A stretch of 51,492 nucleotides of DNA, the filler included, from Sphacelaria rigidula (lineage: Eukaryota): the NCBI GenBank assembly GCA_964200075.2. It is 4 parts of 4 records of this genome, joined end to end, with 100 filler letters (N's around TTAATTAATTAA, not from the genome) between each part and the next. Parts side by side here need not be neighbours in the genome. Positions count along the whole stretch, not along the records: positions 12,901 to 25,699 come from CAXNAA020003409.1; 3 more parts are not named here. One strand, given 5' to 3'. The notes beneath the pieces were generated by a model, which saw only the letters and a list, made by a program, of their open reading frames with translations, ran no database searches and was not told the origin of the DNA. The position numbers were made by a program, and so were the translations under genes. This document shows, one piece after another, positions 2,707-47,400 of this stretch (position 1 is its first letter; each line of letters starts with the position of its first letter).

Positions 2707-3260
2707 GTACGTTCGCTCTGTAAGGAGTATCGCCACCTGCGCTGACATTGCCTCATACACACACGGCATGCGACAGTTTTTGTGTTTTTTTCTCAACCTC
2801 AATATGTTCTCAAACCAGGACTGGGCGGTCTCACGTTGCTGTTCGCTGTGCCCCACACGTATCCCTTCATGGCGTGCAGGTTTGTCGAATGCGCTGTTGC
2901 GCTGGTGACAGTCACTGTATGTCTGTTAATTGTGACAACCGTCGTTTTCTTTTCGTCTCTTTGTTTTGACAAATTTATTCACCAACACACACAAAAATAC
3001 TGTTTGTTGTGTGCCTTCTAGATTTGTTTTCCTTCCTCTGCACCAAATTTAAAAAAGGTGGTAGGCCGCATGCATGTGCGGAGTGCTCTGGGCTACATGT
3101 CGATCAAAAACTGTCGACAGCACTCTACCACTCTATTCCTTTATTTTGGTTCACGCCGCCTCAGTTCCACAACACCCGCGTACTCCCACGACGAGACGTT
3201 CACTTTTCAACCCGTATCTCTAGATTATCGTTCTTGCGCATTTGCGCAGGTATACAAGCC

Positions 3261-6133
3261 ATGTCTGATATCAACCGCCCTTCGACTTCATCTGAGCACG
3301 ATGTCACCAAGGATGGTGCACTTCCTTCAGACAGGGGTGAAACAACCGTAGAGTCACCAATGCGTAGTGAGACGGTCGACAGCAACGAACCGGAACGTTT
3401 TGATGTCGATGATAGCGTGGGTGCACGGCACATTTCCAAGGACGTGACTACAGATTTGAATGAGGGCCGTAGTACTCCTTCCCATGCTCATAAAGTGCGA
3501 CAAATCAAAATGCTCACCCCCACCTCCCTTAGCGAACATACCCCTGTACACCAACCAGCTTTTCAAAGCTCTCACGGTGTTCCCACTTCTCATTCTCAGA
3601 TGGCATCCCTCCACGTGAGCTATGATGCTACGGGGACTTTTCCTGACAATGATCTCCGCACCCAAACCGGTGCTGAACCCTGTGACCGCCCCACTCTGGC
3701 TGTTGACGACCAGCCCAAGTCGGAACAGTCTCCGCCCACGTGTGACGAAGCATATTACCAACTTGAGCAGACCCGTCCAGCCATTATTCCCCCGCGCCAT
3801 CGGTACAACCTTTCGGTGACTGAACATAGCGGGTGCTGTGATCCGATTCAAAACAACGGTCTAGCATAGATTGAACGTGCGAGTTATAACTTGCACGCCT
3901 CGCTGCAGGTCAACGCGAGGATTCTGTAAGAGCACAGGACCCCGCGCAGGTCCCCCGTAAGATAGATGTCCATTCTGAGCAAAAACCAACGGAACAGAGC
4001 AACCAAGAGCGCGCGATACGCGAATGCACGAAAGCTATAGAAATTGAGAAGCAAGAATGTGGGCTGATAGCGCAAAGACACTCAGACGCTTCGCACCATT
4101 TCTCACAAATCTGGCAAACCTGACAATCACAACTGCGTTCGTTCCGTCGCCCCCAACCGGGTGACTCTAACGGTGTTCTACACCGCTCCAGACGCAACAA
4201 TCGATTCGACGGTACTGAACATGGCTAACGTTGTCCAACGCCTGACACACCTGACCTGGCACACTCAATCATAGCCACTTGCACCGGCTCAATCACAAAA
4301 CGGTGGACTTTTACACATGTGTGGACCCAGTGCTGCGGCTTAACCCCGCCAGGACGGTACCCACACAACAGTGATGCTCACCTCACAACTTGACAACCTT
4401 TTGGGAGCGTTCTACAAGTTCCGGAGATTCCAGATAGCATATGGTGGGGTAACCCAGGACGCGTTGCTTAGCCCAAAACCTAAGCGCCACCTGCCTGTTT
4501 ATTTTCTACTTCTAATGACCGTTCATTTCTCATTAGTGGGGAAAATCCCACAATCAAAAACAAACAATCGCCGGCCACTCCGGTAGAAGTACCCAACAAT
4601 TTTCTTTCGCTCGGGCAGGTCACATACATCACATACGTGAATCAACGTCGGCCACCGCGGGTTCAACCATGTGGTGTGGGCTCCCTGGTTCTGCTGAAAC
4701 TGTCTTAATGGGTTTCAAGATAGCCGAAGCCCGTGCACCATTGCATGGCTATCAATTGAGCACTGATCAACCCCAACGTTTGAATCCTGGATTACATCAC
4801 CCAGTTTTACATCCACCAGGTGCTAATCATATTCAATCGAATCCCTTCTCTTCGGGGGAGAGGCCGTTATGTAGTGCAGTTTCTTACTCACCCGGAGCCG
4901 AAATATCTTCTGGTACGGTAGACGCTGCCCCTTCGACCGTTTATCGGAGGATACCAAATTCAAAGCCACACACTCAACCACCCCCCAGCTGCTCGAGTGC
5001 CCGGCTAAGCACTCTACCTTGTTCCGCAAAAACTACGGTAATCGGTTCCCTTTCATTCGATGAGCGTAGTTATTCCTTAAAAGGTCGCAACCGCAAAGGA
5101 CCCATGCTATCCATCGCTCAGCGGGTTGGAATGAAACCCCAAGTGACAGCGACTTAGGTGGTACGCCAAGAGCGTGGCCTAGGTTCGACTGTCCGAGAAC
5201 TCATTTCAATAGCCCCTTAAGCAGTCGACCATTTCGTGCGCTATAGGCGTCACCCTAGGCGGGCTCCTCCAGATGATCATGTAGATAACCCTGAAGTAGC
5301 AAGCGCACGTGAATTCCAAGAAGAAGATCGCGTGTGGGCTCCAACAGATGAAGACCTTGGAGTGGAGCAGGCCGGTACTCCCCAGATTTCGAACAGATCG
5401 TTACTGCTCCCTGACCACCCCTCGTGCACTGCGTTAGAACCCATTTCCGATTAAGCGTCGCCGCCTGTAGGGGCAGACTTCGCTGAATCATGGACGTTTG
5501 TGTCTTAGTCATGAAGACACCACGATCGTGTGTTCATCACCCGGCAGACAAAGTGTTACGCAAGACGACTCGTTTCCTAACGCGCCCATGTTAGCCCCTA
5601 TTACAAACGCGGGGTTGAACTGCACAGCTCTATCAATCCCGCTTCCTGACAAATCGTCTCCAAAACCACCCAAATTGGCCCCAGCCATCGACGGTATTGA
5701 GTTGATTGGCGTATCAAATACAACACCGTGTCCCGATGAATCGTCCCCCGTTCTGACCAAGCTGGATAATGTAATTAATCCCGCTTTGCACAATGACGAC
5801 CCGCCCCCTCTGTTGGCCAATAAGTGTAAAACACCACGCACAAACCAGTTATCCGGTCCAACCACGACAACTGCCCTTCCCCGGCATCGTCCCTCCGTTG
5901 CAGTATATGAGATTCAACCCTCGACTAATGAGACAAATTTTTCAGGCACAAACACTGACACTCCATGCACGCACCATCCTTCCGACCAAAAGCTTGTCCC
6001 GCAGGATCATCAACGTGTGTATTTTAGCATATACTTTCAAAACGCAAAGCAGGATGTGTCAGATGTCTTTCCCGATTCGGGCCCGATTTCGTCAGGGGTA
6101 CCGCAGATTATGCCTCTTTCACGACCAAGATAG
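3261..6133 (+). pseudogene. Putative decayed gag/pre-protease region
   Basis: Series of broken Pro/Ser/Thr-rich + strand ORFs directly upstream of the protease. No diagnostic gag motif was recognised, so the call is positional. Confidence 0.4.
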
Positions 6134-6165
6134 GTTTACATAGTAGAGCGCGTGCAAACTGTCAT

Positions 6166-6717
6166 TTGATAGCTCTTGCACTGCCAGATTCAGGTTCGCC
6201 TCAAACATTCATTACAGTCAGCTGCTGGCAACGGATGATCAACGCGGGCGCGGTGGACGAGCATTGTCTTCCCACCGAGCACCCTTGTGTTTTTGGCGGC
6301 TTTGGCTCCTCCACATCTCTTACGGTTAATCAACTAGTGAGATTCAGTGTACAACTCTTCCAGGATACTACTCCCAATGCTCGGTTGTCCGTATGGGCAC
6401 TAATTGTACCCGACGATTCCATGTCGTTCGATGTTTTGTTGGGTCGAGATAGTTGGCTTCGTTTTTCTACGCACACGTATACGTCGGACAGACCTGTTCT
6501 GAACCGTTCGGCTACAGGCAAACTGTCATTGGGTCACTTCGACTCTGATTCGGGGGCTCAGTCCTACGAGAATGACCCCGCACAAACAGGTAATCCTTTC
6601 GGTCTGTACTATGTTGGTGAGCCTAACGTCTCACTTTCTCGTGAACCCCAACTTATCCATATGAATCTCGTGAGACGCAATGGATCGCCCGCTCTCACAG
6701 GACATCATTTGGTCTGA
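6166..6717 (+). pseudogene. Retrotransposon aspartic protease
   Basis: ALPDSGSPQTFIT (D-S-G active site) and FDVLLGRDSW (hydrophobic-LG-R-D motif). Confidence 0.85.
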
Positions 6718-7099
6718 TTGCTCAAATCTGACCAATCACAGGTTGGTCCGTTTGAACAGACCGAAGTATTCGTTCATGAAGGTCGGCAGGCCATTTACCT
6801 CACGTCCCCTGCATGTTTCGATATACTTAAGAGACAGTTATTGGGTTATGCTCAAGCGCCTCTCCTACGAAGTGCCCTGTCACATGTGTGCCCCCTGCGG
6901 AACGCAACCTGTCAACCGCCCCCTCAAAACTACGGGTCCCCCTACGCTACACATGCCTGACCCCATGGTGGTGACAAATCTACGAGATGCGCCTGAACCT
7001 AAACCCCCACCTGCATTACTGGACAGATTTTCCCCAGAACAACGCGCCAGTTTCCAAACGTTGTGGGATGACATTCCCCCTCATTTGCGGCATATTGTT

Positions 7100-8053
7100 T
7101 TTGATCTATCCGGTGATGGTTGGACACCCATTGTAGTCGATAGGCTGAAATCCATCTTGATTAGATATTCTGGGTGGTTTTCTAGTGCACCCTTGGATTT
7201 AGGTCGATGTACCACGACACCGTTCAAAATCAAAATCCCTGATGGCATTCCTCCTATCGCTATGCGTCCGTACCGCACGAACCCCCTCTTAGCGGATAAG
7301 ACCCAAGTAATTCTCGATTGTTACTTATCCACCGGTATAATTTGGTACTCGACATCTCGGTGGGCCTCGCCTTTAGTAGTCGTCCGCAAGAAGAAAGGCA
7401 AAATCAGACTGACGGTCAATTATCAAGGATTGAACGCTGTCACCGAAATCGCCCGGCTGCCTCTTCCACGGATTGATGAAATGTTTTACTCTCTTGGCGG
7501 GGGTAAGGTATTTTCGAACATTTACATGCAGTCCGGCTACCACCAACTCGTGATGGATCCAAATTCCATTGAACTGACGGCGTTTTGCACGCCATCAGGT
7601 ATGTACGAGTGGGTGGTTATACCACAAGGAGCCGCCGGAGCCCCAGGGGCGTTTCAACGCGTATTGTTCCTTGTGGCTGATGGATTGCCCAAATGTCATA
7701 TGTACGTTGATGATGCGGTGTGCCACGACTGCACGCCGGCCGAACACGTCGAACAATTGGCATCATTCTTTGGTCGGTTTGAACAACACAACTTGAAACT
7801 CGCTCCCTCAGAATCCCGCATTGGCGCCACGAAGATTGAGTTCCTGGGTCATTGCATCACCCCCAAAGGTTGTAGCCCAAACCCCAACAAAGTCGCCGCC
7901 CTCGCTGACATGCCCATGCCACGCGACATTTCTCCACTGCGTCCCTTGTTGGTAGCTCTAAGCTACTACAGACAGTACTTGCCAAAACTTGCCCGAACGC
8001 TCAAACCCCTCAACACCCTCCTCAAAAAAGAAGTGAAATGTGTGTTCACATAG
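7100..8053 (+). pseudogene. Ty3/Gypsy reverse transcriptase
   Basis: PIAMRPYR, WASPLVVVRKK, RLTVNYQGLN, LPRIDEM, SGYHQL, TAFCTPSGMYEW, PQGAAGAPGAFQR, YVDD, IEFLGH; in-frame stop at 8051-8053. Confidence 0.97.
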
Positions 8054-8530
8054 GAAATGGAAAAAACCGCCCGCCATCTTCTCGACACCCTTTCGCGCCC
8101 GCCGATTCTCGTCTTCCCTGACTGGTCAGCCGCCGAACATGGTTCTCGCCCTTTCCGTCTCCACACAGATTCTTCCAGAAATTGGGATTGGCTGGCTTCA
8201 CATTAAAACAGGAGCAAGACAATGCTACTGTTCGTCCCATTGTGTATGTGAGTCGCGCCACTTTTCCAAATGAACAGAATTGGTCTGTCATGGAACAAGA
8301 GACCGGCGCAGTTGTTTGGGCGTGCGACGTCTGCGTCAGTATTTGTATGACATCTTGTTTGTGAATTATGCGAGTCATGAGTCTTTGGAAAACCTCGCCA
8401 AATTGGTGGAACACAACGTTCAGGTACAACGCTGGTTCGAAATCCTGTCGTCTCACAACTTTCAGTTGAAATATCGCATAGGCCTACAAAATGCAAACGC
8501 CGACTTCCTGTCACGCTTGCCCACACCGGC
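8054..8530 (+). pseudogene. Retrotransposon RNase H, frameshifted
   Basis: PILVFPDW...PFRLHTDSS, RPIVYVSRAT..NEQNWS..EQETGAVVWA, NANADFLSRLP, spread across three frames. Confidence 0.9.
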
Positions 8531-9267
8531 TCAACCTATCGATGAATCCCCCATGGGACGTATCACCGATCCCACCGAAAACATTGCATATTTCTTCAGC
8601 AGGAATGAACGTAGATGTCTCTACACGCCACTTTCATTACGAAAAACACCGGCTTTAGGCATGGGTGGGCTGACGACCACAGCCCACGCATCAGTTCTGG
8701 GTAGCTTGCAACCTCAATCGTTGTACGCAGTTCGGAATGGACTGTCTACGAATACTGTTGGCTATGATCATTTTCGTGCAACTGGCCAACGCATGGTTTT
8801 CGCAGCAGGTGAAGAACCGTCCTTTGCTGACTCCATCTTACCGGTTCAAGTTCGAGATTTGATTTCGAGTAGGACGCGTGCACGGCGGACCGCTGACACG
8901 GCCACCAAATCAGCCGTATCTGGTCCTGACCTTCCCCTCCCTGCCCCCACCCCGGTCCCCGATAGTTTCCCTGCGCCTCCTCAACCTCCACGACGCAAGG
9001 CTCGCAGAAAATCGACCCCGACCGTGCCTTCCTTGCCAGCCGTAGCCGAAACCACGGCTGTGCCCCCTCCCTCGGTGATGATATTAATAACACCACCACA
9101 ACAGCCACCACGCTAATCGACGCAGGAGTAGACGTTGACGTTCCACCTGAGAATACACCACCTGGTAAGCTCACCCTTGATTCCGACATCACCGCTACGT
9201 GTCACCCCCACTCTGACCCGAACCAGAGCAAGTAGATGCTTCAACAGAAGACGTATTCAAGGAACGT

Positions 9268-11199: not shown

Positions 11200-11916
11200 C
11201 GAAGGGGGCATATTTTTTATATATGGCTTTGGATTCACTATGAAACACGCGATCTTACAAATTCGGGATGGATCTTTTACTGGGGACGAGAACCCGGAGA
11301 ATGAAACTCTTCGTTTCCACACCAAATCTTCGAAATATGGTTCTATTTCTTCATCTACTGACAGCTATTGACAACTGCTACACGCAATAGAAATTTGGAT
11401 TTCGATCACCGAAATGTTGGGGTCCTAGATGAAAAAAATCATTTCGGAACCATTTTGGCGTCCGTTCGGACACCCGGAATTCCCCGAATTTTTTTTTTCA
11501 CCTAGGACCCCAATATTTCGGTGATCGAAATCCAAATTCATATGGCGGGTAGTAGTTGTAAATAGCTATCAGTAGGTGGAGAAGTGGAAGCACGTTTCGA
11601 AGATTCGATGTGGGTACGAAGATTTCAATTCTCCGGGTTTTTCATCCCAAATATAAGATCCATCCCCAATTTGTAAGATCGCGTGTTATGGAGGTTGGGT
11701 AAGATTGATTTTGTCAACCCTGCATCTGACAACTCCTCCTTTATCTGTTTTCTCGATGACCCGAGCCCCCTTAAGATTCGCTTCGATGGTGCCTACTACA
11801 CCGAGGTACCGACCGCTCGCCGGGGATCCTGGTGCTTTCAAAGATACGACCAAGGCGATCTCGACACAGCTGTTCTCCGCAACACAGACACCGCTTGGGA
11901 TGCAGAAGACTCATGA
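11200..11916 (+). pseudogene. Additional aromatic-rich C-terminal Pol domain, split by the foldback insertion
   Basis: YIWLWIHYE (to 11244) and LWRLGKIDFVN...FICFLDDPSPLKIRFDGAYYT...GSWCFQ (from 11686) are in the same frame and rejoin on removal of the insertion. Confidence 0.6.
11244..11687. mobile_element. Foldback element/MITE (~205-bp imperfect inverted arms, ~30-bp loop)
   Basis: AACACGCGATCTTACAAATT.GGGATGGATCTT at the left mirrors AAGATCCATCCC.AATTTGTAAGATCGCGTGTT at the right. Internal TTTGGATTTCGATCACCGAAAT.TTGGGGTCCTAG is also mirrored. Confidence 0.93.
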
Positions 11917-12800: not shown

Positions 12801-12900
12801 NNNNNNNNNNNNNNNNNNNNNNNNNNNNNNNNNNNNNNNNNNNNTTAATTAATTAANNNNNNNNNNNNNNNNNNNNNNNNNNNNNNNNNNNNNNNNNNNN
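12801..12900. other. Assembly gap with artificial TTAATTAATTAA spacer
   Basis: 100-nt N block with a central six-frame stop linker, identical in all three gaps. Confidence 0.98.
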
Positions 12901-13163: not shown

Positions 13164-14267
13164 TTACTTGTGCGTAGCTTCACGAAGATACACGGGCTGG
13201 TAGCTGGATCTGTAGAAGGTTTGCACAGAGAAGGTGCAGGTGCGGGTAGTGCATTCCGGGACGACGTAGCGAGAAATCATGAGCAGCACCAATCGTGCTT
13301 CTGCTGCACAACACGTAATTGATCCGTCATGAGCATCGGCGAAGACAAGAACCCTTTCGCCAACTCGCCAGCTGGCGGCCGCACTTGCGTGTACAGCTGC
13401 AAGGTGGCGGCCAACTTCGTCGCGCACGGCTGCTCCAGCTGCAGCAATCGTGCCAACACAGCCAGTGTCTGTGCCTGGTGTGTGGTCTGCCGGGACGGCA
13501 AGACTGGCTCCTGGTCGCGATACATCACGCCCACAAAGCAGCAGAAGTGCGTCGGCAGCAGACGGTGGAGACTCATCTTCTCGAGCGCCTGCTGCAGGCG
13601 CTCGAGTGGGAGTTGGGTCGGCGCCGTCGGCAGGCGATGTATATTCATTCGAGCTAGGGCTGGCGGGACGCGACCGAGGTGTGGTAGTTGGGCAAGCGCC
13701 GGCGATAATTAGCAATAATTCGTTCGGTGGAGGGTCGACGGGGAGTGGTCGAGGGCCGGCGGGAGGTGGCCGAGGAGGAAGTAGGCGGACACCGGTGGCA
13801 GGGGGGAGAGACTCACTCGGCCGAGCGCCGGCAGGAGGTGGCCGAGAAGGAAGTGGGCGGGCACCGGTGACAGTTGAGAGGAACTCGTTCGGTCGAGCGT
13901 CCGCGGGGGGTGGCCGAGCGCCGGCAGGAGCCGACCGACGCTAGTTTGGGCGGTCCCCGCTGGCAGGCCGAGGTGTGAGTGGGCGGGTGCTGCTGGCAGG
14001 TGGGAGGGACTCGCTCGGCCGAGCGCCGGCGGGAGGTGGTCGAGAAGGGACTGGGCGGGCGCCGCTTGCACGTGGGGGAGACTCATCTGGACGAGCGTCG
14101 ACGGCAGGTGGTCGAGCGACTGCTGCGCGGCGCACCCCAGGTAGAGGCGGCTGAGGCAGGCGCAGCCATGCAGCAACTTTAAATACGCACTGCTGTATAT
14201 GCCACCGTGAGTACAACTCCATGCACCTATTAAGGCAAACGCGGAGGAAACGTTGTAATGGCAACAA
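13164..14267 (-). pseudogene. Pro/Ala-rich repeat ORF with one in-frame stop, divergent from the KDZ gene
   Basis: ORF 13941..14267 and ORF 13164..13715 share a frame and are separated only by TAG at 13941-13943. Repeated RPPPAGARPSESLPP peptide units. Confidence 0.4.
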
Positions 14268-17200
14268 GTGCGGGCGATGGGCTTGCAGCGGCTGCTATAG
14301 TGATTTTAACCGTGACCTCAACGTCAAGTGCTGCCGATGCGACAAGAGCATCTGCCAGTTTTGCGAATGCCGAGGGTGAGTCTGTGATGGGTATAAGTGC
14401 GATTTCCTCCCGTATCGCTGATCCCTCCCTGTGTTTCAGCGTCGTAGTGTTTCCGTGTGAGTACATGTGTGCGATGTTTTGGCGTCAGGTTTAGCGTAAT
14501 TTCCAAGTGGAACACACGGCCGAAACAGACGGCGGTGAATGCGACACACATGAACCGAAAACTCTGAAAACGACTGTGGCAATGAATACTTTAAACTCGA
14601 AGCCAGTTTATATTTACTGTTCTTATTGATGTGCAGCCTCTTGTCTGGTACCACCAAAACGTCCAGGAAATTTGTGTTGAAGCAATTCGGCGGAATACTG
14701 ATGTGAGGTGGAGGAGTGTGTACATTTTCTTACGCCATACCCTCCAGACCACCCCCCACCCATCCTCCCCCATCAGTATACTGCTTGTTGTCGTTGACAT
14801 TCTACATGTTCTGTTTCTGGATGTGACGGACGCCCTCATGGGGTCGGTAGGGAGGATGGTGCAGCATCAAAGCGTGCCTCGCCGATGTGATCATTAAACT
14901 ACCGCTTGCTGCAATGTACAACCCGTTGGTTGGACGTGAAAACAGGTGTAAGCGACGGAGGGCAAGGAAGGCCGCAGTCGACAAAGGCAGCGGTAGTAAG
15001 CGACCATATGTGCGTGTGCAGCGCTCGGATGGCAATAGACATGTGCGACCAACCGTCTTCAAGTCTCCTGCTAGTAAGCACGATGCTGCAACCAGCACCG
15101 TAGTGTCAGTTTGCACCTCTTCCTCCCAGAACAGGGTGGTGACACTGGTAGATACAGACTCAGGGCGGAGCAGCTACTCAAGAGAAGAGTGTCACACGTG
15201 AGTCCGCCTCCTGCTTTGTTTCATTTCGGAGTCCAACACCAGGTAGCGGCATGATAAGGTGGTGAGGGGAATAACCCCACGTCGAGGTTCGCGTTGCCGT
15301 CACCGTTTCCTCCTTCGAATGTGATTCGGACAGTCAAACCGGGATTGTTGTGGCCGCCCATGTGCTGTCGTCGGTCATGCCAACATATCTAGTGCTGGAC
15401 TGAAAACTTGGCGATTACTAAATTATGTGAGACGGACCAAGCTAAAACCTATCGAATGCGAAGGGCTAGGGCTCCACAGCCGATCCATGGAATCTAATCG
15501 GCGGGCGTTGAGTTTCCGCGACGTGCTCTCCTCTGCGCCTTTTTCACGTCAGTCTTTCGCACGCAGGTAAAGTACGGCGACAGGTCGGAACCAGCGGCGG
15601 CCAAGTGGAGAGTGTGGCCGACGACGTGTGCAGTCACGCTCGCGCAGCCTTCAATGCCCTGACTGAGAAGACCATGCAAGTTGCCGAGAGGGTGGCATTT
15701 TGCGACACCGAAATCTTCACGAAACATGTGTGCGAAGCGACGGGGAAGGGTATGTTGTCGCAGGAGGACGGCAGGACATTGGTTGAAATGGCCAAGAATG
15801 CAGAGCTTGTCGGAGTGCCCCCTCTAGTACGAAGAGGTGCAACGGGGTTCTTTGCCGTGCGAGAGAGCGTGGGTCGTACGGGTGAGCACCGGTGGGCGCA
15901 CGTGAAGAAATATGACAACCTGGAGACGCGATTAATGTGCAAGGTAATGTGGTTATACATTCAGCAATTGCACAGCATAGTGGGGCTGAAACATTTGACG
16001 TTGGTACGCGTATGCTGGAACTCTATCTGGTACACTAGCTATCGGTGCTATCTCGCTCAGTATCTCAATATTGCGAAACGACATATTTGTGCGTGACATG
16101 AACGGGGAAGCTGTCGAGGCCCATGGCTACCTCACTTTCCATATGCCGATGTTCATATCAACACGTCGGTGTACACTCAGGAGTACGAGGCCGCCCATAT
16201 ATCGTGAACCCCACAGGCTACCAGAGGGAAACGGTGTACAGAAAGCATACTGCAAGGAACTGGGACGTGCAAACACACGAACATGGTAGCGCTGGGTTTG
16301 TGCGTACAGGGAGATAAACGGGTGGGCTCTGGTGCGGAGGTGGATGCTGTGAAGGCGCCTACGGATAGCTCTGATTCCCAGAGGCCGCGTGGACAGGCGG
16401 GGGGGCGATCAGCCTTCGCTTTTCTGCAGGAGAGACCAGAAGCGTTCCGGAGAAAAATGCGGGACTCCCTCAACCTCATTGCGGCAGTCCAGTTTCCACC
16501 ACGAAATCCGGCTGGGCTCCCTGCATACAACAGAGACTTGGAGCAATCAAAGTTCACAGCATCGCAGGAACGATGCAATATGTGCAGGGGATCATTCACG
16601 CCGGCAGGTTCGGTCACAGCGAAGTTGCTGACTCGGGTAAGGCAACGGTGGGAAGAATTGGCCGGTAGTGTGACGTTCAGTGTTTTCAGTACGGAAGGCA
16701 GCATGTGGTAGGTCAGGCGTTTATTGATATCGTTTTGGAATTTTCTGCGGGACCTTGTCAGGGCATGACGAAGCAAAAGAAGTGGGTCAAAAGACATTTC
16801 ACTGGTCTAGGACGTTTCATTACGGTAAACATAGTTTTTGCACGAGAACGCCCCAACCTGTCCCTCAAGAGGGAAGTGAAGGCCCATTCGTTTCTCTTCA
16901 GGATGCCTCTGCGATTCTCCATTCTCAGTTTCAAGTCACAATTGGAGAAACTGAGCTGAAAACTGAGGTAAGGTCCAAGAACAATATTCATGTTCTCTCA
17001 GAACTCTCCTGAAAAAACGAAAAACAAATGAAAAATTAAAGAAAAAAGTTTTTTCAATTATCATGCACTACGACCTGGGCCAGCCAAGAGTGGGTGTAAA
17101 TCTCGCTCAGGCGACGCACGGCGCGATATTAGGATTTGAACGCTGAAAAGTTGACAACAGCTTTTTATAGTCGGAATGCTGAAGATCACGCGAGCAGCAA

Positions 17201-17399
17201 AGAAAAAGACAAAAAGTTACAGGCATTCGAAATTTCAGCGCAAATAAGATATTGTCATAAGTCCAGGAAAAAATGAGAATCTGCAGGTGGACGCGTGAAG
17301 CATCAGTGCCGTGGATGTAAAAGGCCCCCCCTAATCTTTCAGCTCAAGAGTCGTCGAATTGGGCCGTGCGTTCAATATTTTCTGTGACGCTGCTGCACC

Positions 17400-17475
17400 A
17401 CTATAAACCAAGTGATGGGAGTCTCCTATCATGGAGGTCACGAGTTCGAATCCCAACATATTCTCTTTTTTTTTC
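17400..17475 (+). other. Degenerate tRNA/SINE-like Pol III remnant in KDZ intron 3
   Basis: B-box-like GAGTTCGAATCCC at 17442-17454 followed by a T run. No convincing A-box or cloverleaf. Confidence 0.3.
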
Positions 17476-20400
17476 GTCCGTCGTTAAGGTCATACATTGT
17501 GCAGCACATTTGCTTCCATTTTTATGTCATTCATAAGTTTTGATTAATATAATTTTTCACATAGAATTGTTTCAGTTTCAGTATTAAGAACCCTCCAACC
17601 CAGTCTGCAAGGTTGCAATGAATGTGGATTGCACAACTGGCAGTGAATAGGCAGCACAGCAGTATTTGGAACAGCGAGGGTACCTCTTTTTCTCCTGAGG
17701 CGGGAAGCTATGTCCTTTATCCTCCTCGCTCAAGCCCAATTTTTTCTATTCTCCCAAGAGAATTGTGCTCGAAACTATGCTGGCGTAGTCGGTAAAAACC
17801 AAACACCATCCTTTCCTTTTCGTGCCTCCCATACCTCGCCTTTTCAGGGCGTTGGCGGTCTCCAACTCGAAGCAGTTACTGTAGACCGAAGGGAGTGTGG
17901 GTGCCGGACCGCTGCGATTGGTGACTGGCGGAGCACCGGAGCTTTTCATTTCGGCAACAGCTGAGTCATCGAGGTGCACGTTCTGTACAATTGTCTCGAC
18001 GGATTCATGGCGGGCACTCCCATCACGACATGGTTTAAAGCGGAACTTGAGCACCTTAAATTTGACACGTCATGGGGAAGAGCTAATCAAGAACTCCACT
18101 TGAGGTGAGTGATGCGGCAATTGATTCAGGAAATATATGCCATATCGCCAATTTGAGCGGGTTACCGACTGACCGGTCGTTTGGGGTCCTACGAGTGTAC
18201 AGGCGCAGTTTTTTACTCTTTTACTTTTTTGGTCAACCCATAGATACGCCTGTTATAGCGAAGAACCAAATGGACTATATGTTGTATTCCTGTACACCCG
18301 TAGCGCTACAGCCAAAACAGGGTGTTTTTTGGACCTTGCACGTTCAATACCACCCCCTCGATAAACGGGGTTTTAAGGCCATGTAGTTCCAACAACACAA
18401 AACCGGGACATGTGCTCGAGAGACAAGCTACTTCTTTCCTGCCGTGCGTGTCGCCACCGCCGATGCCACCTTCGCCCCTCTTGTTTCTCTATTCTACGTG
18501 CTAGCCTTGTCCGCGGCGACAATTTGCTCAATACGCTGAAGAACGCCTCCCTAGCATTCTTGGCGCTGATCGATTTTCCGATGGAGCTCCGGTGCTGGCA
18601 GTGGGGCGACTTTCCCGATATTCTCACCTTCGACGCCTGCATGAAAGTCGGAACCGATTTCATCACGGGCACCCACCTGGATGCGTCGCGGCCAGAGCAG
18701 GACATCGACACAGAGCTCGTCTCTATCCTCTTAAAGCTGACGTTGGTGTCACCGATCTTCTTCGGAGGCCTGACAGTGGCCTTCGTCATGGTGGACGGGG
18801 CCAATACCGGCAACTCGCCAACCTGGATAGGGCCTCGCAGCCGCATATCGGAGGTTCTCCACAAGTCGGCACGGGGCAAGACGGCTGCAGAGGATGTCCA
18901 CAAGACGGGGAATGGGCAGGCGTTGGTGAACCACTTGAAGGATAAAGGAGGGATAGGTGCTGTCGAAAACATGGACAGGAAGACGCTACAAGCTCTGCAC
19001 AGGAAGTGCTTCTCGACGGGAGTCTCAAAGTGAGTGCAGTATGCCGCAGATAAACAAACATCGTTTGGGTTCCCACGTTCACCTCCCACGGAACGTAAAA
19101 GGGATTTTGCCAGGCCTCAACTGTGAGCTGTCGTCGCCATTTGTTTTAGTTCATTGGGCCCTGTCACTCTTCACTATGGTAATTCACGCCTGTCTCCCCC
19201 GTGTTATATTGCGCGCTCGGGCCTCCGGGAGGGGGGCGTCAGGGTCTGGACGGTGGCAGCATTGAAGTCGCTCTTCAAGGCCCTGCATACGTTTCACTAT
19301 TCGAAGGAAAACCCGAACTTCGACGACTACTCGAAGTTGTTTCTCGGTAGGGAGGCCTCGGTCGTGACCGCGGGAACATTCGCCGGATTCGCATCGTCGG
19401 GTGTTGTGGCGACCATGAAGCTGCTGCTGACGCAGGAGAGTGAGAGGGATCCAGCAGATGCCTTTCTCGGGTTGAAGGTATCTAGAGTGCGAGAATAGTC
19501 ATCCCTCTCTCACTTACTCGGAGAAAATGAATGAGGATGCCAGTGGACGTCGGATGAGACGACGAACTGGTGCCATTTTAATGTACTATTACGATTGGTG
19601 TTTTCGCCTTCCGATTGAAGTTTTTCGGCCTTCCGCTTGTATGCTTACCCTCTGGGAAAAATCGTGACTGACGCGTGCAGAACGCGCGGGGGGTGCTGTC
19701 GGGTCTGCCGGTTGCGATAGACGATGGTCAGTCTGTTGGCACTTGAATGTTTGATGCAAATTAGCCACAGAAGCAGAAGCGCAAATGAAGTAGTGCGTTT
19801 CCATGCGATCTTGCTTGCGCGTCGACCGCGGTGACGTCCAAAAATGTTCACCATGCTGTTTGCACCACTATACCTGTCCGTTCCCGTCTCGCCCACCACA
19901 CCCGCGCAGTGGCAGCCGATATTTGCCGTGTACGACTTTGCATGCGGGCTCGCAAAACAGCCGGAGGAGATGGCGCCAGGGTTGCTACACAACAAAGGTA
20001 TCTTTACTTGCCTCCCCATGACAGATGGCGCGGCTGCACACGGTGGAGGATTCGGTGAAGGGTCTAAAGATGGAGAGATGACAAGGGGGGGCGCTGGGGT
20101 GACGACTGCGGCAACCGAGCGAGCGGCGCCGCTCACGCCGGCACTTGTGGATGCGAGAGTGAAGGATCCGCGACACAGGGCGGCGGCCACAGGCGACGCG
20201 GTAGCCGGGGTTACCACAAGGTCTACTGTGTCGAACCCGGCAGCGCGGGGGACACGAGACGGGGCGGCGCCGGTAAACGGGAGCGTGGCGGAAATAGCAG
20301 CGGTGGAGGTTGCCGTGTCGAGATTCGAAGGAGTGGCAGCGGCGGTTAAGGCAAGAGTAGGCGGGGCGGCCGTCGAATTTGTGGGGGTCACTGCGCCTAA

Positions 20401-21365
20401 GGATGGAGCGCCGATGGCGGCGCTGCCTGCCGGGAGGAGGGCTAGGACAAAACGGGGCGGGGGAAGACACGCAGGGATGGTCGGGGCGAAAAGGTCACCC
20501 GTCGAAGCGGCGGCGGAGGGAGTGGAGAGAGGTCGTGTCAACCTCCCTGAGCTGGCGCATTTGGGAGACCACGGTCAAAGTGTCAGTCTCCCCGCATCGA
20601 ACGTGCCGCCCACCCCATGCGGTTGCGAGGAAAGGAACGCCATTCACGACGTGTACACGCTGAAAGCGAGGTCGCGACCTGACGCCCCGCAGAGCCGACT
20701 AGGTGTGGAGGACCTCCTGTCCTACCACGCTAACTTGAGTTCGTCCGCTGGCAGGGCGGCTTCCCTGGCGGCTACTTGCAGCATTTCATCGCTGCGTGTG
20801 CAAGGCCAGCGTATCCTATCTCTTCACGAGGTACTCGTTTTTACGTACCATTGGCATTCAGCGGTGACGGCTCAAGGCATCGACGTCGTATCCGTGGGAA
20901 TTGAAGGATGGGAGCTACTCGCTGCGGATGTAACGCCATCCCCACCGTCTTCTGAGAGTGGGGGTGGATGGTCGCAGAAGGGAGACGATAGACCACAAGC
21001 CGTTCGCGTGTCACACGCTATGGAGGTTGAGCGAGAGCTACTTGTTGTGATATCGGGATCTCGGGAAGGTATCCCACCCTCTCTACCGTCGCTTGGAGAA
21101 ATGACCAACTGGGTGGTGGAGCAGGCAACTTGTCGACCGTTCGTCAGGGTAATAGACGGGCTGCATTCCTACGCAGAGGTGAGGAAGCTGTGGCCGGAAA
21201 CGATCCAACCATTACATGCCACGGTAGGATTGGATGAGAAACGAAGGTGCTGAAATCAAAATAACTAAAATTGACGACCGAAATAGTGCATGTTTTTTTA
21301 AGATACCATACGTCGGAGGACTGACCACCCCTCGAAACGAATGCATTCGTTAGTGGTTTTTTTAA

Positions 21366-21715
21366 ACACCGAGCGTGACTCCTGCGCTCAAGTGAATTAT
21401 TTTGGAAACCAACGAGCAGGGCTCGTTTGCTCACGTCGCTTATTTTTCTCACCACGAGCAACGACTCGAGTGCTGAAGTCATTACTCTTTTTGCCGACGA
21501 ACGACGACGTGAGTGGTCGAGCTATTAACGTTTGTAACCAGGAGCACACTGTCGTTTTCTAGGGTCGTTCATTTGTTGAACCACGAGCAATGACTTGACT
21601 GCTCGAGCTATTCATTCCCTGGACCACGACCAGTTTACTCGTGTATTGGAGCCCTATCTTTTTCCACCACGAGCGCTCACTGGTGAGCTCCAATAATTTT
21701 TTCCCACCATGAGCT
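21366..21715 (+). repeat. Degenerate ~43-bp minisatellite (9 units, core ACCACGAGC) in KDZ intron 7
   Basis: Core variants start at about 21366, 21408, 21451, 21493, 21537, 21580, 21623, 21666 and 21706. Confidence 0.85.
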
Positions 21716-23089
21716 ACTTACTCAGCTGCTGTCCGTCCAGAATCTCCACGGCAAGCTTCACTTTACTGTGCGTCGCGCAGGCCAAGGTCCAATTTGTTGT
21801 GGAAGACCTGCTCCCTTCTGGCCCAGAAGAACGGATATGAGCCGGTAAGTCAGTGCGTCGCGCGTGCTCGTAGGAGAAGGTCCCGTGGGCACGGATTGTC
21901 CATGTGCGCTGCCACACGCGCACGCTGGAAATTCCCCATGAATGAGACAATGTACCCCAGTTTCCCGGTGTAGCCCACACGAGGTAGTTCGTATACTACA
22001 CTGCTTCACGATCGTGCATCGAAAAGCGCGAAGCGCACTAAGGGTCAATTATCGGGTTTGACTGTAATATTCTCGTCCGTGCTCGTCCCTCGTCATATTT
22101 CAGAGCGCGCCGTACGCAGTGGTATCGGCTTCAGCCAAAATGTTGCCTGGGTCAAGTCCCTACAAATAGCGCTGGCCCCGAACGTTCTTCCACATGATAG
22201 CGCCGGAGAGGACTTCAAGGTCGCAGGTTACGGCATAAAATTGCACGACACGGCCAACGATGGCCACAAGCGCACCTCCAATGGCCGGCGTCGCCCGCAT
22301 CTCCACATGCGTTGCTCAAGCGGAATGTACGTCGGGCCCGATGGTCCGCACGAGAAGAACCACGACGCTGACTGCAGGCGAAAGTACGCTGGGTTGTCTC
22401 AATGGTTGGAAATTAGCGGCGTAAATCTTAATCCCCACGAGCAAGACAATTCCCTCTTGACTTTGCACGTGCGTACGCTATCCAACATGACGCTAGAGGT
22501 CTTGATTTACTCTCTACGAGTCATTCACGAGGTACGCAACGAGGCCATCAACATGGAAACCCTGATGAGGATCGTACGAAATAGCATGCACCACAGGAAG
22601 GGAGGGGCTGCCACGGTCTGTGCATTTGACATCTGGATCCGCGGACGGTACTTTTGTAACTTCCCCTTGATGCGAGTGTTTGACCGTTTTGGGAGGGTTG
22701 ATGTAGTCTCCTTGCGTGCGATACTTGGGCAGGGGAAGGCTTCGTAAGGCGCGTCGCAGGGGTGGGAGGGGGTCGTCTCTGGGAGGGAGTGTTATTTGGG
22801 CAGGGGCGGTGATGCCATTGAGTGCGCTTGCTGTGGGTGGAAAGTGATTTGGGTGTTCGCGGCGTGCCTGTGATTGGGTGGCCGTTGCGGTTGTCGTTCT
22901 CCGTTCGTTGTACTCTTTTGCAAGTACTTTCAGATTTGTCCTGACACTTCAACATGTCTATGAACATGCCCATTTCCCTGAGTTTTACATATTTTGATCT
23001 CGATCCCCCATCAGCATTCCTGTATAATCGTCATATTCCGTGAGCGCCTGGCAAGGGCAAGAAAGATTACCACTGATCTTTCAACCAGT

Positions 23090-24050
23090 CATCACATAAT
23101 AATCGTCGTGAACCACCGCCTGTCCTTTGGGACCACCGTCTGCCGTTCGACCCTGGAAAATGAAAATATATCACGTACTGACTTTTCATCTGGTAGTTGT
23201 CGTACATCATCGGCACTCGTTAGGGAACGCCGTGTCTACTTTGACCCCGGAAAGTGAGCGAATGTGACCAAGTCATATACATATGACACTCGTTGTTCAC
23301 TACCATCAGTTGCTCGGAGAGATCGCTTGTGGTTCGACCCTGGCAGATGAACCGGTATGATCCAGTGTTTACCGAAGATACTCGTTACCCATCACCAACA
23401 CTTGTCCGGGACCATCATTTTTGCACACTGACACATGATTAAAAAATAGCAAGATACCTGGCACATGATACTCGTCGTTAATCGTGGGCACTTGGTCGGG
23501 AACATATTCTTTACTCAGACCTTAGAAGGTGAAAATATTCTAGGCACAGAGTTTATACGTGCCAATCGTTGTCTAGCACCAGCACTCGTTCGGGAGTATC
23601 TTTGTTTATCTGACTCTGGCGGGTGATAAAAAAATAATTGGCCGGTGATATCTCACAATACACGGTGGATGTCCACCACCATTAGTTGCTCGAAGAGATC
23701 GCTTGTTGTACGACTGTGGCAGAGAACCGGTATGATCCAGTGATCACACAACATACTCGTCACCCATCGTCAGAACTTATGCGGGACCATCATTTTTGCA
23801 CCCCGGCAGGTGGGAAACAAATCGAGCGGGAGATGTTACACATCATACTCGTCGTTAAGCATGGGCACTTAATGGGGAACATCATCTTTACTCAGACCTT
23901 GGAAGGTGAAAATATTCGAGGCACAGGGTTTAAACTTCCCCATCGTTGTCCAGCACCAGGACTCGTTTGGGGACATCTTCGTTTATCTGACTCTGGTGGA
24001 TGAAAAAAACGTTAGCAGGTGATCTCACACATGAGACGGTGAATGTCATA
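23090..24050 (+). repeat. ~376-bp tandem repeat, two copies plus a diverged partial copy
   Basis: 23298-23673 and 23674-24048 share AGTTGCTCG.AGAGATCGCTTGT, GAACCGGTATGATCCAGTG, GGGACCATCATTTTTGCAC, CTTTACTCAGACCTT.GAAGGTGAAAATATTC and TTTATCTGACTCTGG. A weaker homologous block lies at 23090-23297. Confidence 0.92.
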
Positions 24051-24946
24051 TCCGTTTACCCACGTTACATCAAATGCGTATCTGACACACTAGAATGATT
24101 CCCCTTCCTTTCTATTTCACTCGGAAGGTGCGCATGACTATTGATCAGAGAAGAAACTTCTTCTCACTTTTTAACAGGTTGATTGATCCTCGTTTGGTGC
24201 TCTCTCTCATGGCTTGATCACCGACATCATGCTGAAACGAGCCGTAATTTCGTCATTTAACACACGATTTTTCCCCATCATATTGATGCCGTAATCCTAA
24301 ATGTCAACACGTTGTGACGGTGTCAACATGCTCCGCCAGGCACTTTCCCGTTGCCCACTTACTCGCTGCATCCCTACGTCCCAGGCGGCTATTCCTGCTG
24401 GCACCGTTCACCGTGCGTGCGGCGCTGCCTGCGCTGCAGCATTCGACTGTATTTACGCCGTGGCTACTCCTCTACCGTGGTGTAGTGCATGCACACTGCT
24501 ACTAACATGGAAGTTTCTTTCTACCCGCGTCGTAGCTTGGCAACAGTCCACGGCGTCTGAGCAGCCAGCTGGCAATGCTACGGTAGGGGTGCACTTTTTT
24601 TCGCAAACTCGTGTCTGGTTCGATGACTCATGATGATTCAGGATTTGCAACAGTGTGGGTCAGGGCATCCCCCTTTGGAAATTCCGTCGGGATATCCCCA
24701 ACACATTGGAATAGTTATCCTGGCGCACTGTCACATATTTCATAAGTCATATTTTCGAAGAGACAAAGGGCTCCTGAACAGTTTAACCTCAGAAAATATA
24801 TGTGCGCCCCTACCGTAGCATCACTCCAGCGGCAATCCAGCTGCTATTACTGTATAGTATAATAGTCGTAGACCAGGTACGGTGGCTCAGTTGGTAACCC
24901 CCTTTATTTTTGACGCCAGTCTACACCTTCCGGTACATGTGGGCGC

Positions 24947-25232
24947 ATCAGCCGGGGTCACACAAAAGGAAGGCCAACACAGGAGCCTTTTCTTTTTTCT
25001 CTTTGTTTGAGTAATCTACTCTCCTTCGCGGTGCTTGCCTTATTTTTAAACGCGAGAGTGCTTCAGCGGTCCTTTTCCCTCGTCGATCGTGAACTCGATT
25101 TCTTGTGTACCCACGACATGACCGCTCTCCACTGTTGAGCGTGGATCGAGAAAAAAATCCCAGATCGCTCCGAGACTTGAGACTTGAACCCACGACCCAA
25201 CCGTCAAAATGTTTCGAGGTTATCAACCGACC
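24947..25232 (-). mobile_element. tRNA-derived SINE
   Basis: On the minus strand a tRNA-like head GGTTGATAACCTCG...GGGTCGTGGGTTCAAGTC (B-box) precedes a ~230-bp non-tRNA body. A related A-box fragment GGTGGCTCAGTTGGTAACC lies on the + strand at ~24880. Confidence 0.65.
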
Positions 25233-25699
25233 ATAAAAAGCAGCTGGGAATTCCCACGCTTGGGTTTGTTTTCTCCAATGTCGCCCATATGCGGCTCCTC
25301 ATATGAGGCGCTGCATGCAGCCTGAAACCAAACATCAGGCACTGTATGACCCCTTTCTTCGTGACAATTTTATGCTGCTTTTTTGTTTTTTTTGGGGGGG
25401 GGTATGGCAGAAAGTGTCAACAACAGACAGGGTGTAACCCCAGGAAGGTATCGGGATATATGAGGGGCTTCATCAAAACAGCACAAAAACCACAGCCCCT
25501 CGTCCCTGGCATCTACCCCGGTGCGACCACGACAAGAATCATCATGGAAAAAATGAGGGTTTTCGTTTTTATGACTACTGTACTAAAATCCAGTTGCTTG
25601 GGGGGTACGGCTGGGGGTTTCAGTTGGTGATAAGGGCTGAATCTTGTACTCAGCGCGCGGGTCTGTATGAAATAGAGGTCGTGGACCTGTGTTGTTGTT

Positions 25700-25799
25700 N
25701 NNNNNNNNNNNNNNNNNNNNNNNNNNNNNNNNNNNNNNNNNNNTTAATTAATTAANNNNNNNNNNNNNNNNNNNNNNNNNNNNNNNNNNNNNNNNNNNN
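25700..25799. other. Assembly gap with artificial TTAATTAATTAA spacer
   Basis: 100-nt N block with linker. Confidence 0.98.
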
Positions 25800-25809
25800 C
25801 CTCTTGTTT

Positions 25810-26082
25810 TCCTTTTTGTTGCTTTAGGTCGGCCATTTCTTTCTGTGCTTTGCTTGTGTTGACTTTTTATTACTTTTTTTGTCACGACTTAGTCCGATAT
25901 GTCGTTCTGTTCGACCACTCTCATTTTTTTCTTTTTCCTGTTCCTATTTTTTTCTGCTTCTGTTCCTTTTTTTTTTCTTAGAGCGTGTTTGAGTTTCGTT
26001 TTTCTTGAGTACGTCTATCATGAGAGCACGGCTGGACCCCGGGGGGGGTCAGTTAAAGTGCGACAATCAAAAAAATCAATCA
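25810..26082 (+). repeat. Dispersed repeat copy 1 (non-LTR retroelement 3' end with (CAAT)n-like tail)
   Basis: Aligns by eye with 44733-44962: AGGTCGGCCATTTCTTTCTGTGCTTTGCT...ACGACTTAGTC...CACGGCTGGACCCC.GGGGGGTCAG.TAAAGTGCG.CAATCAA. Confidence 0.85.
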
Positions 26083-38597: not shown

Positions 38598-38697
38598 NNN
38601 NNNNNNNNNNNNNNNNNNNNNNNNNNNNNNNNNNNNNNNNNTTAATTAATTAANNNNNNNNNNNNNNNNNNNNNNNNNNNNNNNNNNNNNNNNNNNN
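38598..38697. other. Assembly gap with artificial TTAATTAATTAA spacer
   Basis: 100-nt N block with linker. Confidence 0.98.
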
Positions 38698-44487: not shown

Positions 44488-47400
44488 CTATGACACTTCA
44501 TTGAACATCCCGTTGTTGCCTGACGCCCCAGACTTGATTGGCTTGGGGCTCGTCATGTTGGCACCCGCGGCGGTGGCGGACTCTATCTCCGTCACCTCAG
44601 CAGGGGTCATGAAAAATCGGTCCTCCTGTGCAAACAAACAGGATTTACCAAAACAGTCGCTACAGTTAGTGCGCCGTCTTCGTAGCAGTTGCTTGCAAAA
44701 CAAACCCGCGATTTCAACACACCATCCTTTACTCTTTTTGTTGTTTCAGGTCGGCCATTTCTTTCTGTGCTTTGCTCGTGTCGACTTTTTCGTCACTTTA
44801 TTTTTTGTTACGACTTAGTCTGCTATGTCGTTCCGTTTGACTTTTTTTTCTTCTGTTCCTTCTTTTCCTCAGAGCGTGTTTCAGTCTATCAAGAGAACAC
44901 GGCTGGACCCCTGGGGGGTCAGCTAAAGTGCGGCAATCAATCAATCAAATCAATCGATCAATATCCACAAATCACGCTGTTTTGGACGCATTACATGGTG
45001 GCACAACAACACGCACTTGACGCTTTCTGCTCTTGATGGAGTATTTCGGGATGGAACACCGAAACGCACCAACCGCAGATGACGTGGCTGTAGCGCTGGA
45101 TAACTCTTGAGCTACAGTTCGCTCACGATAACACTGAATACTATACCCCTGCCGTTCAGGATAACATGACCTACAGCATACACGATAGAGCTTGATACAG
45201 CGTTCTCACATTCCCATACTATTTAGATTAGTACTGTGGTGAGTGGGAGCATGGGCTATTCACTCCATTTCCACAAAACTTGCATCCCAATGTACATGCA
45301 GCGCAGTCAGTACCTTCATGTCCCAGAATGGTCCTTGCGGCGGGTCGTGGCCAGTCACCACCTCCATCAGGTGGAGCGAGTTCACCACCCAGATTGATCC
45401 TGCACGCCCCTCCGTCCCGGCATCGTCCCACACCTGTCACACAGTCGCGGTCATAGTCACAGTCATAGTCACGGTCACGGTCACAGTCGCGGGAGAAAGG
45501 CAAGGGCGAGACTTTAAAGGGGGTGTGCGCGGTATTTTGTTTGAAAATACTGTTCAAATGTTACGCGCAGTGTGACATTTTGGACAAACGTATGTATACG
45601 TGGCGACGACATATTACTTTTCATTCCTTGATACCATGCACTCATCTGGGGCTGTGTGTTTAACAACATCATCTGCTGTACCCGTGTTTTTTAGGGGACA
45701 AGAAGGCGGGCGCTGCAGTCATCGTGTTAAGACATTGCAACCGAGTATGCAGTGATAACTGCTTTCAGTTTTCATGTTGCTGAGTGGTCAATGCTGAGTG
45801 CTCAGCCCTTTGTTTTGTTCTTTCGTAAAATTGTCAACCGTGTGTCTTTTCCAGAATAGACCGCAGATCTCAAGATAGCAGTTGCCACCCATGCTTAATT
45901 CCACAAACGAAACGTCGTTCCATACATCGATGCACAACGCACCAACATTTCTACACGTAGTCATAACACACTACAGTGACTACACCAACCCCTCCCTCAT
46001 GGGACTGCGATTTTAACCCTGCTTCCTTACTCAGATGAGACTCATGATCCCTAACCCTTATCCTGTAAGGGCAGGGCACACACTTTAGCGGCACTGTGCT
46101 ATTGATCCACGTTTACTCAAGAAATTGACACGTACCACCACGCAGAGACATATTTCGGGCAACCCTGTTGCATTTGGTGTCGTTGTGGTCCTGGAGCACT
46201 CGCAGACGGCATGGAGTGAACTTCCTGCACAAAGTCGAGTCGTTCATGCCTCACTCACCATGGGACATGTGCCGCTCTTGGACTCAGGCACTCAACACAC
46301 CATTATACCAAACCCTTGGAAATGTGACTTTTTTGCAGAATACTTGGAATGCTTTTATGACTGTCTGTCAGGCACGTAGCTCGCTACAAGGTGGGTGATA
46401 AAAATGAAAGCCGCTGCAGGTTCGGGTTGTCAGGTATAAAACAAAGAACGCGCGCCAGAAACAGAACGGAAAGCGGCCAATCTTAGCCTCACGACCCACA
46501 TCTGACGCGAAATAAATGACCCTCCAAACAGCACATCTGTCACCCGAAAGCGGCAGACTCCTCAACTCACAGCGATGTACATATAAACCTTATTAATCCC
46601 CAAAGGCACTTCTACAGGTGAATACGATCAATCACCTTGACAGGCTTGAAGGTACTTTCTACCACCCAACGCCGTGGTACACAGCGCACAGAGTCGTAGG
46701 GCGGGGGCTCTTCGGTGGTTGTGACGATCATGCCCATCGCTACAAAGGCGGAGCTTGGCGGCACAGGACGCCACATGTACACCGCCTTCTCGCCGGCAAC
46801 CTGGGGCAAGCAACCCCGTAGCGACGACGAATGCATGAGCACGCCGCGTCAGGGGCAACGGGAGGGGCGTGCAAAGTGCGCACAAAACGGTGGCGAGGCA
46901 TCCAACCCGAGGATCGATGTAACATGTAACGTCCAGCACCATGACACCCGCTGCAAACCTTGTCGAATACTACTTCGGATGCCGTCAGTGGAAAACAGTC
47001 ATGCACACAACACACCTCGTCTACAGACAGGTCAAACCAACATTCCCCGTTACGCCAAAAACTAGTCCGTTCACGGTCGGCACCGCACCACACCGCACCG
47101 CACTCAAGGCAAAGACGAATGCTCATTTTTTCTCCACGCGTCGCAAGTACGTCAAACTGTAACAGACCTACGAGTGTACCTCCGAGGGTTAGGACCACGG
47201 TTACCGTCAGAGCTCGTATTGCTTTAATTGCTTAGTTGGATGAAACGTCTGGGCCTGTCCCGCACAAGAGGTCCGCGGGCATCGGAAAGCGAGAGAAGCC
47301 GCGCAACTGCCTGAGCGACGTTAATGCAACAAAAGGCCTTCAGGAGCCTGCGAAATACCGCACTTGAGAGTGTGCCATCGCCTGCAGTGTGACCGATGCT

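Follow-up and report, generated by a model that had tools for sequence, protein, structure and literature searches.

What kind of gene is spread in open blocks over positions 14914-22747 of a 51,492-nucleotide (nt) stretch of the Sphacelaria rigidula genome (assembly GCA_964200075.2), here called the window? An earlier note on this DNA had read the interval as a nearly intact, nine-exon transposase gene related to KDZ elements and HMGXB3, belonging either to an intron-rich transposon or to a domesticated copy. As judged from its sequence, a multi-exon transposase-type gene is present on the plus strand at 14914-22747. It is probably a single transposase gene copy from a multicopy family of brown-algal cut-and-paste DNA transposons, CxC4-bearing and Zisupton-like, within KDZ. 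The copy in the window is an ordinary decaying transposon copy, and is best filed as one more representative of a kind already known, this one from a Sphacelaria-like host.

Homologous proteins and exon structure

We accept the gene because of homology, and not because its frame is open. Open blocks run in series on the plus strand across the interval, and when 137 fetched proteins and protein fragments were compared with the window by tblastn, all matches lay on the plus strand within 15575-22741 and nowhere else in the window, in blocks delimited by GT and AG dinucleotides. Exon 5 (query 18506-19027) matched 2 of 596 candidates, both Ectocarpus proteins (P0001, 48% identity; P0002, 46%). A profile made from exon 5 and these two proteins, searched against 1.84 billion representatives, reached 124 proteins at E ≤ 1e-3, 51 of them at E ≤ 1e-10 and 12 at E ≤ 1e-30; all 124 are 549 amino acids (aa) or shorter and the majority are exon-sized. 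For exon 9, 12 of 180 candidates matched, three at 80-86% identity (two of these named Sphacelaria rigidula) and the others at 34-68%. A search with exon 9 among longer proteins gave none of 1,129 candidates, and no relative was found when related loci were sought in metagenome contigs (twice) and viral contigs (once). The proposal of a stramenopile transposase-type gene that is spliced and broken up into open reading frame (ORF) pieces is therefore upheld and can be narrowed to a brown alga, with relatives at 80-86% in S. rigidula and 46-48% in Ectocarpus.

The model supported by these alignments has nine exons, 4,089 nt and 1,362 codons plus a stop, and its eight introns are all GT-AG:

14914-15197, plus strand: putative exon 1, unverified, with ATG at 14914, a basic KRRRARK stretch and donor GTGAGT at 15198
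15553-15943, plus strand: exon 2, N-terminal conserved region, from tblastn matches; donor GTAATG
16217-16636, plus strand: exon 3, first Cys pairs (C..C..H, CNMC), the start of the CxC4 cluster; 13 fragment alignments
17848-18104, plus strand: exon 4, carrying the latter half of the CxC4 cluster (ECGC) and a TGA in frame at 17962-17964; 26 alignments and a contig of run X6
18505-19029, plus strand: exon 5, candidate first catalytic Asp (FDACMK, D at 18632); Ectocarpus homologs and dozens of fragment alignments
19243-19477, plus strand: exon 6, QESERD region; 8 alignments
19910-21178, plus strand: exon 7, candidate second Asp (VYDFAC, D at 19934); alignments of P0003 and P0008; donor GTGAGG at 21179
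21781-21844, plus strand: exon 8 (64 nt), interrupted by a TGA in frame at 21838-21840; alignment of P0127
22104-22747, plus strand: exon 9, GPDGPHEKNHxxxC (D at 22340), NLNPHEQD (E at 22439) and TAA at 22745-22747; 12 homologs, 34-86% identity

Of the nine-exon structure that had been proposed, exons 2-9 stand by homology, whereas exon 1 is a phase-compatible guess: it agrees in phase with exon 2 through the acceptor at 15552, and gave no homolog by tblastn with the 137 proteins and no Pfam match. Just upstream of it, at 14155-14379 on the plus strand, is a Cys-rich open frame of 74 aa (CCICH...C..C...CSGC...CCRC...C..C.C), without a Pfam match, that may be either a further upstream exon or what is left of an unrelated zinc finger. 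Within exon 2, residues 5-124 of P0001 align to 15575-15916 (35% identity, E 4e-11), and P0072 and P0028 match there too. The 13 fragment alignments of exon 3 lie within 16208-16654, most of them stopping at 16639-16654. Two junctions named in the earlier note, from LMCK into ATRGKRC (15943 to 16217) and from LLTR into GVGG (16636 to 17848), are canonical GT-AG and agree with the ends of the homology blocks.

Run X6, which we guess to be RNA, provides a 312-nt contig that covers 17944-18102 and then 18503-18655. Together with the shared AG, this places the intron from GT at 18105 to AG at 18504 and joins 18104 to 18505, although a processed DNA copy could yield identical joins. The junction between exons 3 and 4 is probably bridged in this run as well, to judge from a second contig (record 27) that stops at 16635 with 127 letters unplaced and from a contig of equal depth at about 17848-17974. 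Gaps in X6 cover, at 15105-15525, 19736-20577 and 22683-23103, were not used as evidence.

For exon 6, the acceptor giving a start at 19243 is preferred over 19150 because none of its eight alignments, which begin at 19229-19271 and stop at 19441-19480, covers 19150-19228. Exon 7 comprises a variable linker rich in Ala and Gly (about 20000-20540) as well as a conserved region (20435-21175), with P0003 aligned to 19874-19999 (MYDAGC) and 20435-20917 and P0008 to 20753-21175. Its link to exon 8 has as its basis phase and one Sphacelaria gene model, P0127, whose residues 15-41 align to 21778-21858 (63% identity, E 4e-5); the 64-nt length of exon 8 restores phase between exon 7 and the conserved frame of exon 9, the acceptor of which reads ...tcatatttcag.

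Premature stops and the open reading frame

Does the copy in the window encode an intact protein? The supported model contains two in-frame TGA codons, at 17962-17964 in exon 4 and at 21838-21840 in exon 8. The first is crossed by all 26 protein alignments over exon 4, 15 of which stop at 18105, and the X6 contig (17944-18102) also covers it. Position 17964 is G, giving TGG, in all four runs; the exon 4 stop is therefore peculiar to the window sequence and may represent an allele or a copy, if it is not an error. Exon 8, taken in the frame matching P0127 (QAKVWFVVEGLHSTGPEERMRA followed by ERAVRSGIGF), has the TGA at 21838-21840 where P0127 has R. With two nonsense codons, the window copy cannot make a full-length protein. 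An uninterrupted ORF of 4,134 nt, as had been claimed, is thus contradicted, with exon 4 running to 18104, two TGA codons in frame and the exact chain not reproduced. The description as nearly intact holds in that the supported model has no frameshift, but not in view of its nonsense codons.

A stop-free path can be drawn nonetheless. However, every enumerated open head that keeps ECGC (8 of 8) must leave exon 4 at 17920. Such an exit skips homologous, contig-covered sequence and therefore contradicts both the protein alignments and the X6 contig. As a chance control, chains were enumerated with exons 1-3 and the junction from 19477 to 19910 fixed. Open chains number 1,232 for the head and 356,902 for the tail, and 5,507 head-tail pairs come to exactly 4,134 nt, so that an open GT-AG path is no more than chance would provide. 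This abundance of open chains, so many of them reaching the very length first reported, is what would speak for there being no gene here at all, just a chance series of ORFs joined through GT-AG sites. That explanation is refuted: exon-wise homology goes down to E 1e-124 (P0126 on exon 9), the conserved blocks stop at splice sites, and one contig lacks exactly one GT..AG interval.

Zinc cluster, candidate catalytic core and family placement

To which transposase family does the gene belong? Its Cys cluster is the Pfam domain CxC4 (PF18717), described as 'associated with KDZ transposases', and this is the only curated profile that links the gene to a known family. It scores 43.6 bits in P0002, 39.9 in P0072, 38.3 in P0008 and 28.9 in P0003, all above its cut-off of 26.9 bits, and 22.1 in P0046, below it. 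Among 125 family fragments it matches 25 (E ≤ 0.1), while other families match at most one fragment each. In the window itself, exon 4 on its own, its stop replaced by X, reaches 16.4 bits (E 0.0085, profile positions 45-104), which is below the cut-off; the first part of the domain falls on exon 3, and exon 4 aligns to the CxC4 region of relatives with E down to 3e-19. The N-terminal CxCn zinc-chelating cysteine cluster of KDZ is in this way found through relatives that score above the cut-off.

Further, the motif positions given earlier were confirmed, namely D 18632 in FDACMK, D 19934 in VYDFAC, DGPHEKNHDADC at 22340 and E 22439 in NPHEQD. These candidate D/D/DxxH/E residues are conserved in relatives, and a role in catalysis would be an extrapolation from that conservation. 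The first D (FDAC-K) is kept in 24 of 26 aligned rows. The second is present in both relatives that cover it, P0003 (MYDAGC) and, by eye, P0057 (ITDIPC). In exon 9, the residues of the GPDGPHEKNHxxxC block are kept in 10-12 of 12 rows (its DxxH, N, H and C residues in 11-12 of 12), and H-E-Q-D of NPHEQD in 11-13 of 13 rows, the E itself in 11 of 13. At the end of this exon (22600-22700), relatives carry a conserved C-x-W-x-CGRCFC, which is degenerate (IRGRYFC) in the window and in the closest copies; this suggests that a C-terminal zinc motif may have decayed in both.

Structure prediction was of little help in defining a fold. AlphaFold models of exon 5 alone (27-row alignment; predicted local distance difference test (pLDDT) score 62, below 50 in the region of the D) and of exon 9 alone (13-row alignment; pLDDT 34) were too poor for a fold search. 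The best scores in the ESM Atlas, 0.80 for exon 9 and 0.77 for exon 5, are at chance level, and the exon 5 profile had no match among the sequences of solved structures. Against the same sequences, exon 9 gave one weak match, to paxillin (E 0.0033), which we read as noise.

As a working mechanism, the N-terminal CxC4 zinc cluster of an intact copy (exons 3-4) would bind DNA, and a DDE-type core would then cut and rejoin the element. Candidate residues for such a core are the D of FDAC-K in exon 5, the D of YD--C in exon 7, and GPDGPHEKNHxxxC with NPHEQD in exon 9. The element in the window, if mobile at all, would need to be mobilised in trans.

KDZ transposases have been characterised by a set of conserved motifs, and the animal gene HMGXB3 has been linked to them. 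Membership of the present gene in KDZ, which is partly supported by its sequence, would follow from CxC4 and from the architecture rather than from a catalytic profile, and several results weigh against it. The KDZ catalytic domain (PF18758) had no match in eight ORF blocks, in six exon pieces (E ≤ 10), in any of 125 fragments of relatives (E ≤ 0.1) or in 18506-22744 translated straight through in one frame with each stop set to X (E ≤ 10), a translation that holds exons 5, 6, 7 and 9 together; in these tests the core is split over those four exons, and the filters of HMMER drop weak matches. No SWIM domain was found (E ≤ 10) in exon 9, either by itself or aligned with 11 relatives (12 rows). 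The SAP domain proposed earlier and an HMG box are likewise unsupported, with no match in Pfam scans of ORF blocks, exons, relatives' fragments and the read-through. No fungal or animal KDZ protein could be identified among the 124 profile relatives, the library entries being without names. Around the gene, the 51-kb window shows no terminal inverted repeat (TIR) or other paired inverted repeat; the ends of the element may be short, lost or outside it. The KDZ link first suggested is partly supported, through CxC4 in Ectocarpus relatives, but PF18758 was never matched.

These negatives raise the alternative of a transposase lineage outside KDZ, a separate brown-algal superfamily in which a CxC4-like cluster is combined with an unrelated or very divergent core. 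It would account for PF18758 being unmatched in four designs, for the empty searches of solved-structure sequences and of the Atlas, and for a profile search that reached short fragments only. We nevertheless regard it as unlikely: the curated, KDZ-associated CxC4 passes its cut-off in relatives, a core split over at least four exons weakens each per-piece profile test, and the KDZ and Zisupton accounts in PMC12477816 and PMC11343200 agree both with the motif order CxC - D - D - DxxH - E and with a protein longer than 1,300 aa. A variant of this idea seems to us quite improbable: the CxC4 transposases of brown algae would be a branch or superfamily of their own, with a core too distant from fungal and animal KDZ for PF18758 to reach, and the in-frame deleted form of the gene seen in three DNA runs (18801 joined to 20578) might, beyond being a dead derivative, give a shortened CxC4 protein that regulates transposition. 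We therefore keep to placement within KDZ in what follows.

How does the gene compare with described systems? In Ectocarpus, PMC12477816 reports eight KDZ families with 6,403 copies, which occupy 1.8% of the genome. These are giant elements (10-30 kb) with nested transposable-element insertions fixed among copies; the transposase gene is frequently pseudogenised, and KDZ transposases can exceed 1,300 aa. The gene described here resembles these in its brown-algal host, in the 46-48% identity of Ectocarpus proteins over exon 5, in a nested high-copy repeat, in a pseudogenised transposase and in a predicted protein of more than 1,300 aa. Canonical Zisupton combines a KDZ domain, CxC4 and SWIM with TIRs and an 8-bp target site duplication (PMC11343200); likewise, PMC12730594 gives 8 bp for Zisupton and a 7-bp duplication, without TIRs, for Kyakuja. 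Our gene is like Zisupton (for example KDZx1 of Cryptococcus deneoformans) in its N-terminal CxC4 followed by a long DDE-like region and in belonging to large elements, but differs in that PF18758 and SWIM are unmatched, no TIR was found within the window and the gene is split into nine exons. In comparison with the CMC (EnSpm/CACTA-Mirage-Chapaev) and Transib transposases, the GPDGPHEKNHxxxC block of our gene has the same relative place; however, our scans gave no Pfam match to CMC or Transib transposase families, and CxC4 is not their N-terminal domain.

Copies, surroundings and annotation

Is this a mobile element or a host gene? The region is covered in DNA runs X1, X3 and X4 by short contigs at 95-99% likeness. 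Within DNA runs, two letters occur side by side at single positions (for example 14851, 15065, 15087 and 17800), and internally deleted forms are joined from 18801 to 20578 in three runs and from 17642 to 21045 in two. By arithmetic on the supported model, the first of these lacks 1,776 nt; the coding share is 1,131 nt, or 377 codons, so the form stays in frame while losing the second Asp, and it might be transcribed as a truncated version. In the Ectocarpus protein P0003, exon 6 is likewise missing altogether and exon 5 for the most part. Multiple copies with deletion derivatives, as expected of a transposable element, are thus present, recognised as variants within runs rather than as dispersed loci. 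In addition, a very high-copy, non-coding repeat is nested in intron 3 at 16789-17630, with a summed contig depth of about 100 times that of its flanks in all four runs, contig depths not being used as copy numbers. The repeat has no tRNA (ARAGORN) or Rfam match; it has an A-rich stretch, and a motif near 17434-17460 is presumably T-arm-like, a resemblance to tRNA for which neither ARAGORN nor Rfam found anything.

With its variants, deletion forms, nested repeat and two stops, the locus fits a decaying DNA transposon copy and does not fit a domesticated gene, the other option left by the earlier note. A host gene of HMGXB3 type, derived from a KDZ transposase, retained for some cellular role and mis-assembled or polymorphic at both stops, could draw on the TGG at 17964 in all four runs, which makes the first stop specific to the window and perhaps an allele or an error, and on the good conservation of the candidate motif residues between Sphacelaria-like and Ectocarpus-like copies. 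It is very unlikely, as several variants and two internal-deletion forms coexist within single DNA runs, a second stop lies in exon 8, the closest copies have degenerate Cys positions at the C terminus, and the relatives are many diverged fragments (124 matches). HMGXB3 itself would share a CxC4-type cluster at most, on the claim of the earlier note, and the features of an HMGXB3-like gene (an HMG box, an intact ORF and a single conserved locus) are not those seen here, where no HMG box was found and the gene is multicopy, with stops and deletion derivatives. We therefore return to the decaying transposon copy.

Around the gene, a Pfam scan of 20 flanking ORFs gave only RVT_1, in the ORF at 6674-8053 on the plus strand (64.1 bits); this ORF and the long plus-strand ORFs at 2970-9116 suggest a retroelement upstream that resembles a long interspersed nuclear element. 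Other features, listed as side observations, are repeats and filler:

11244-11687: 444-bp palindromic unit with arms at 11291-11443 and 11487-11639 (84% complementary) and outer arms; it looks like a miniature inverted-repeat transposable element or a foldback element
13696-14123, upstream of the gene: tandem or direct repeats with units of 72-105 nt, inside Pro/Ala-rich frames
23294-24009, downstream of the gene: a unit of about 376 nt, repeated twice
24367-25600: extremely high-copy region, with the top depth of the covered stretch in all four runs, many alternative joints at about 24826-25242 and a short inverted repeat (24575-24601 and 24795-24821)
25812-26047 and 44734-44918: two direct-repeat pairs (57 nt, 93%; 35 nt, 91%) about 18.9 kb apart, perhaps a repeat present twice or the two ends of a long element
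12801-12900, 25700-25799 and 38598-38697: runs of N (three pairs of 44 N, spaced by about 12.9 kb), with the look of masking or scaffolding and not of biology

In the databases, intron-rich brown-algal transposases appear as exon-sized fragments or as partial models labelled 'unnamed protein product'. The suggestion that annotation misses this element is accordingly true in part: what exists is fragments and partial models only, yet such partial gene models are found in Ectocarpus and Sphacelaria, and KDZ elements of Ectocarpus have been published (PMC12477816). The value of the present work is practical and lies in annotation, and the gene itself opens no new question. A homology-supported exon map helps in masking and classifying the giant elements of brown algae, and it extends the record of KDZ elements in Ectocarpus by a second lineage of brown algae, one close to Sphacelaria.

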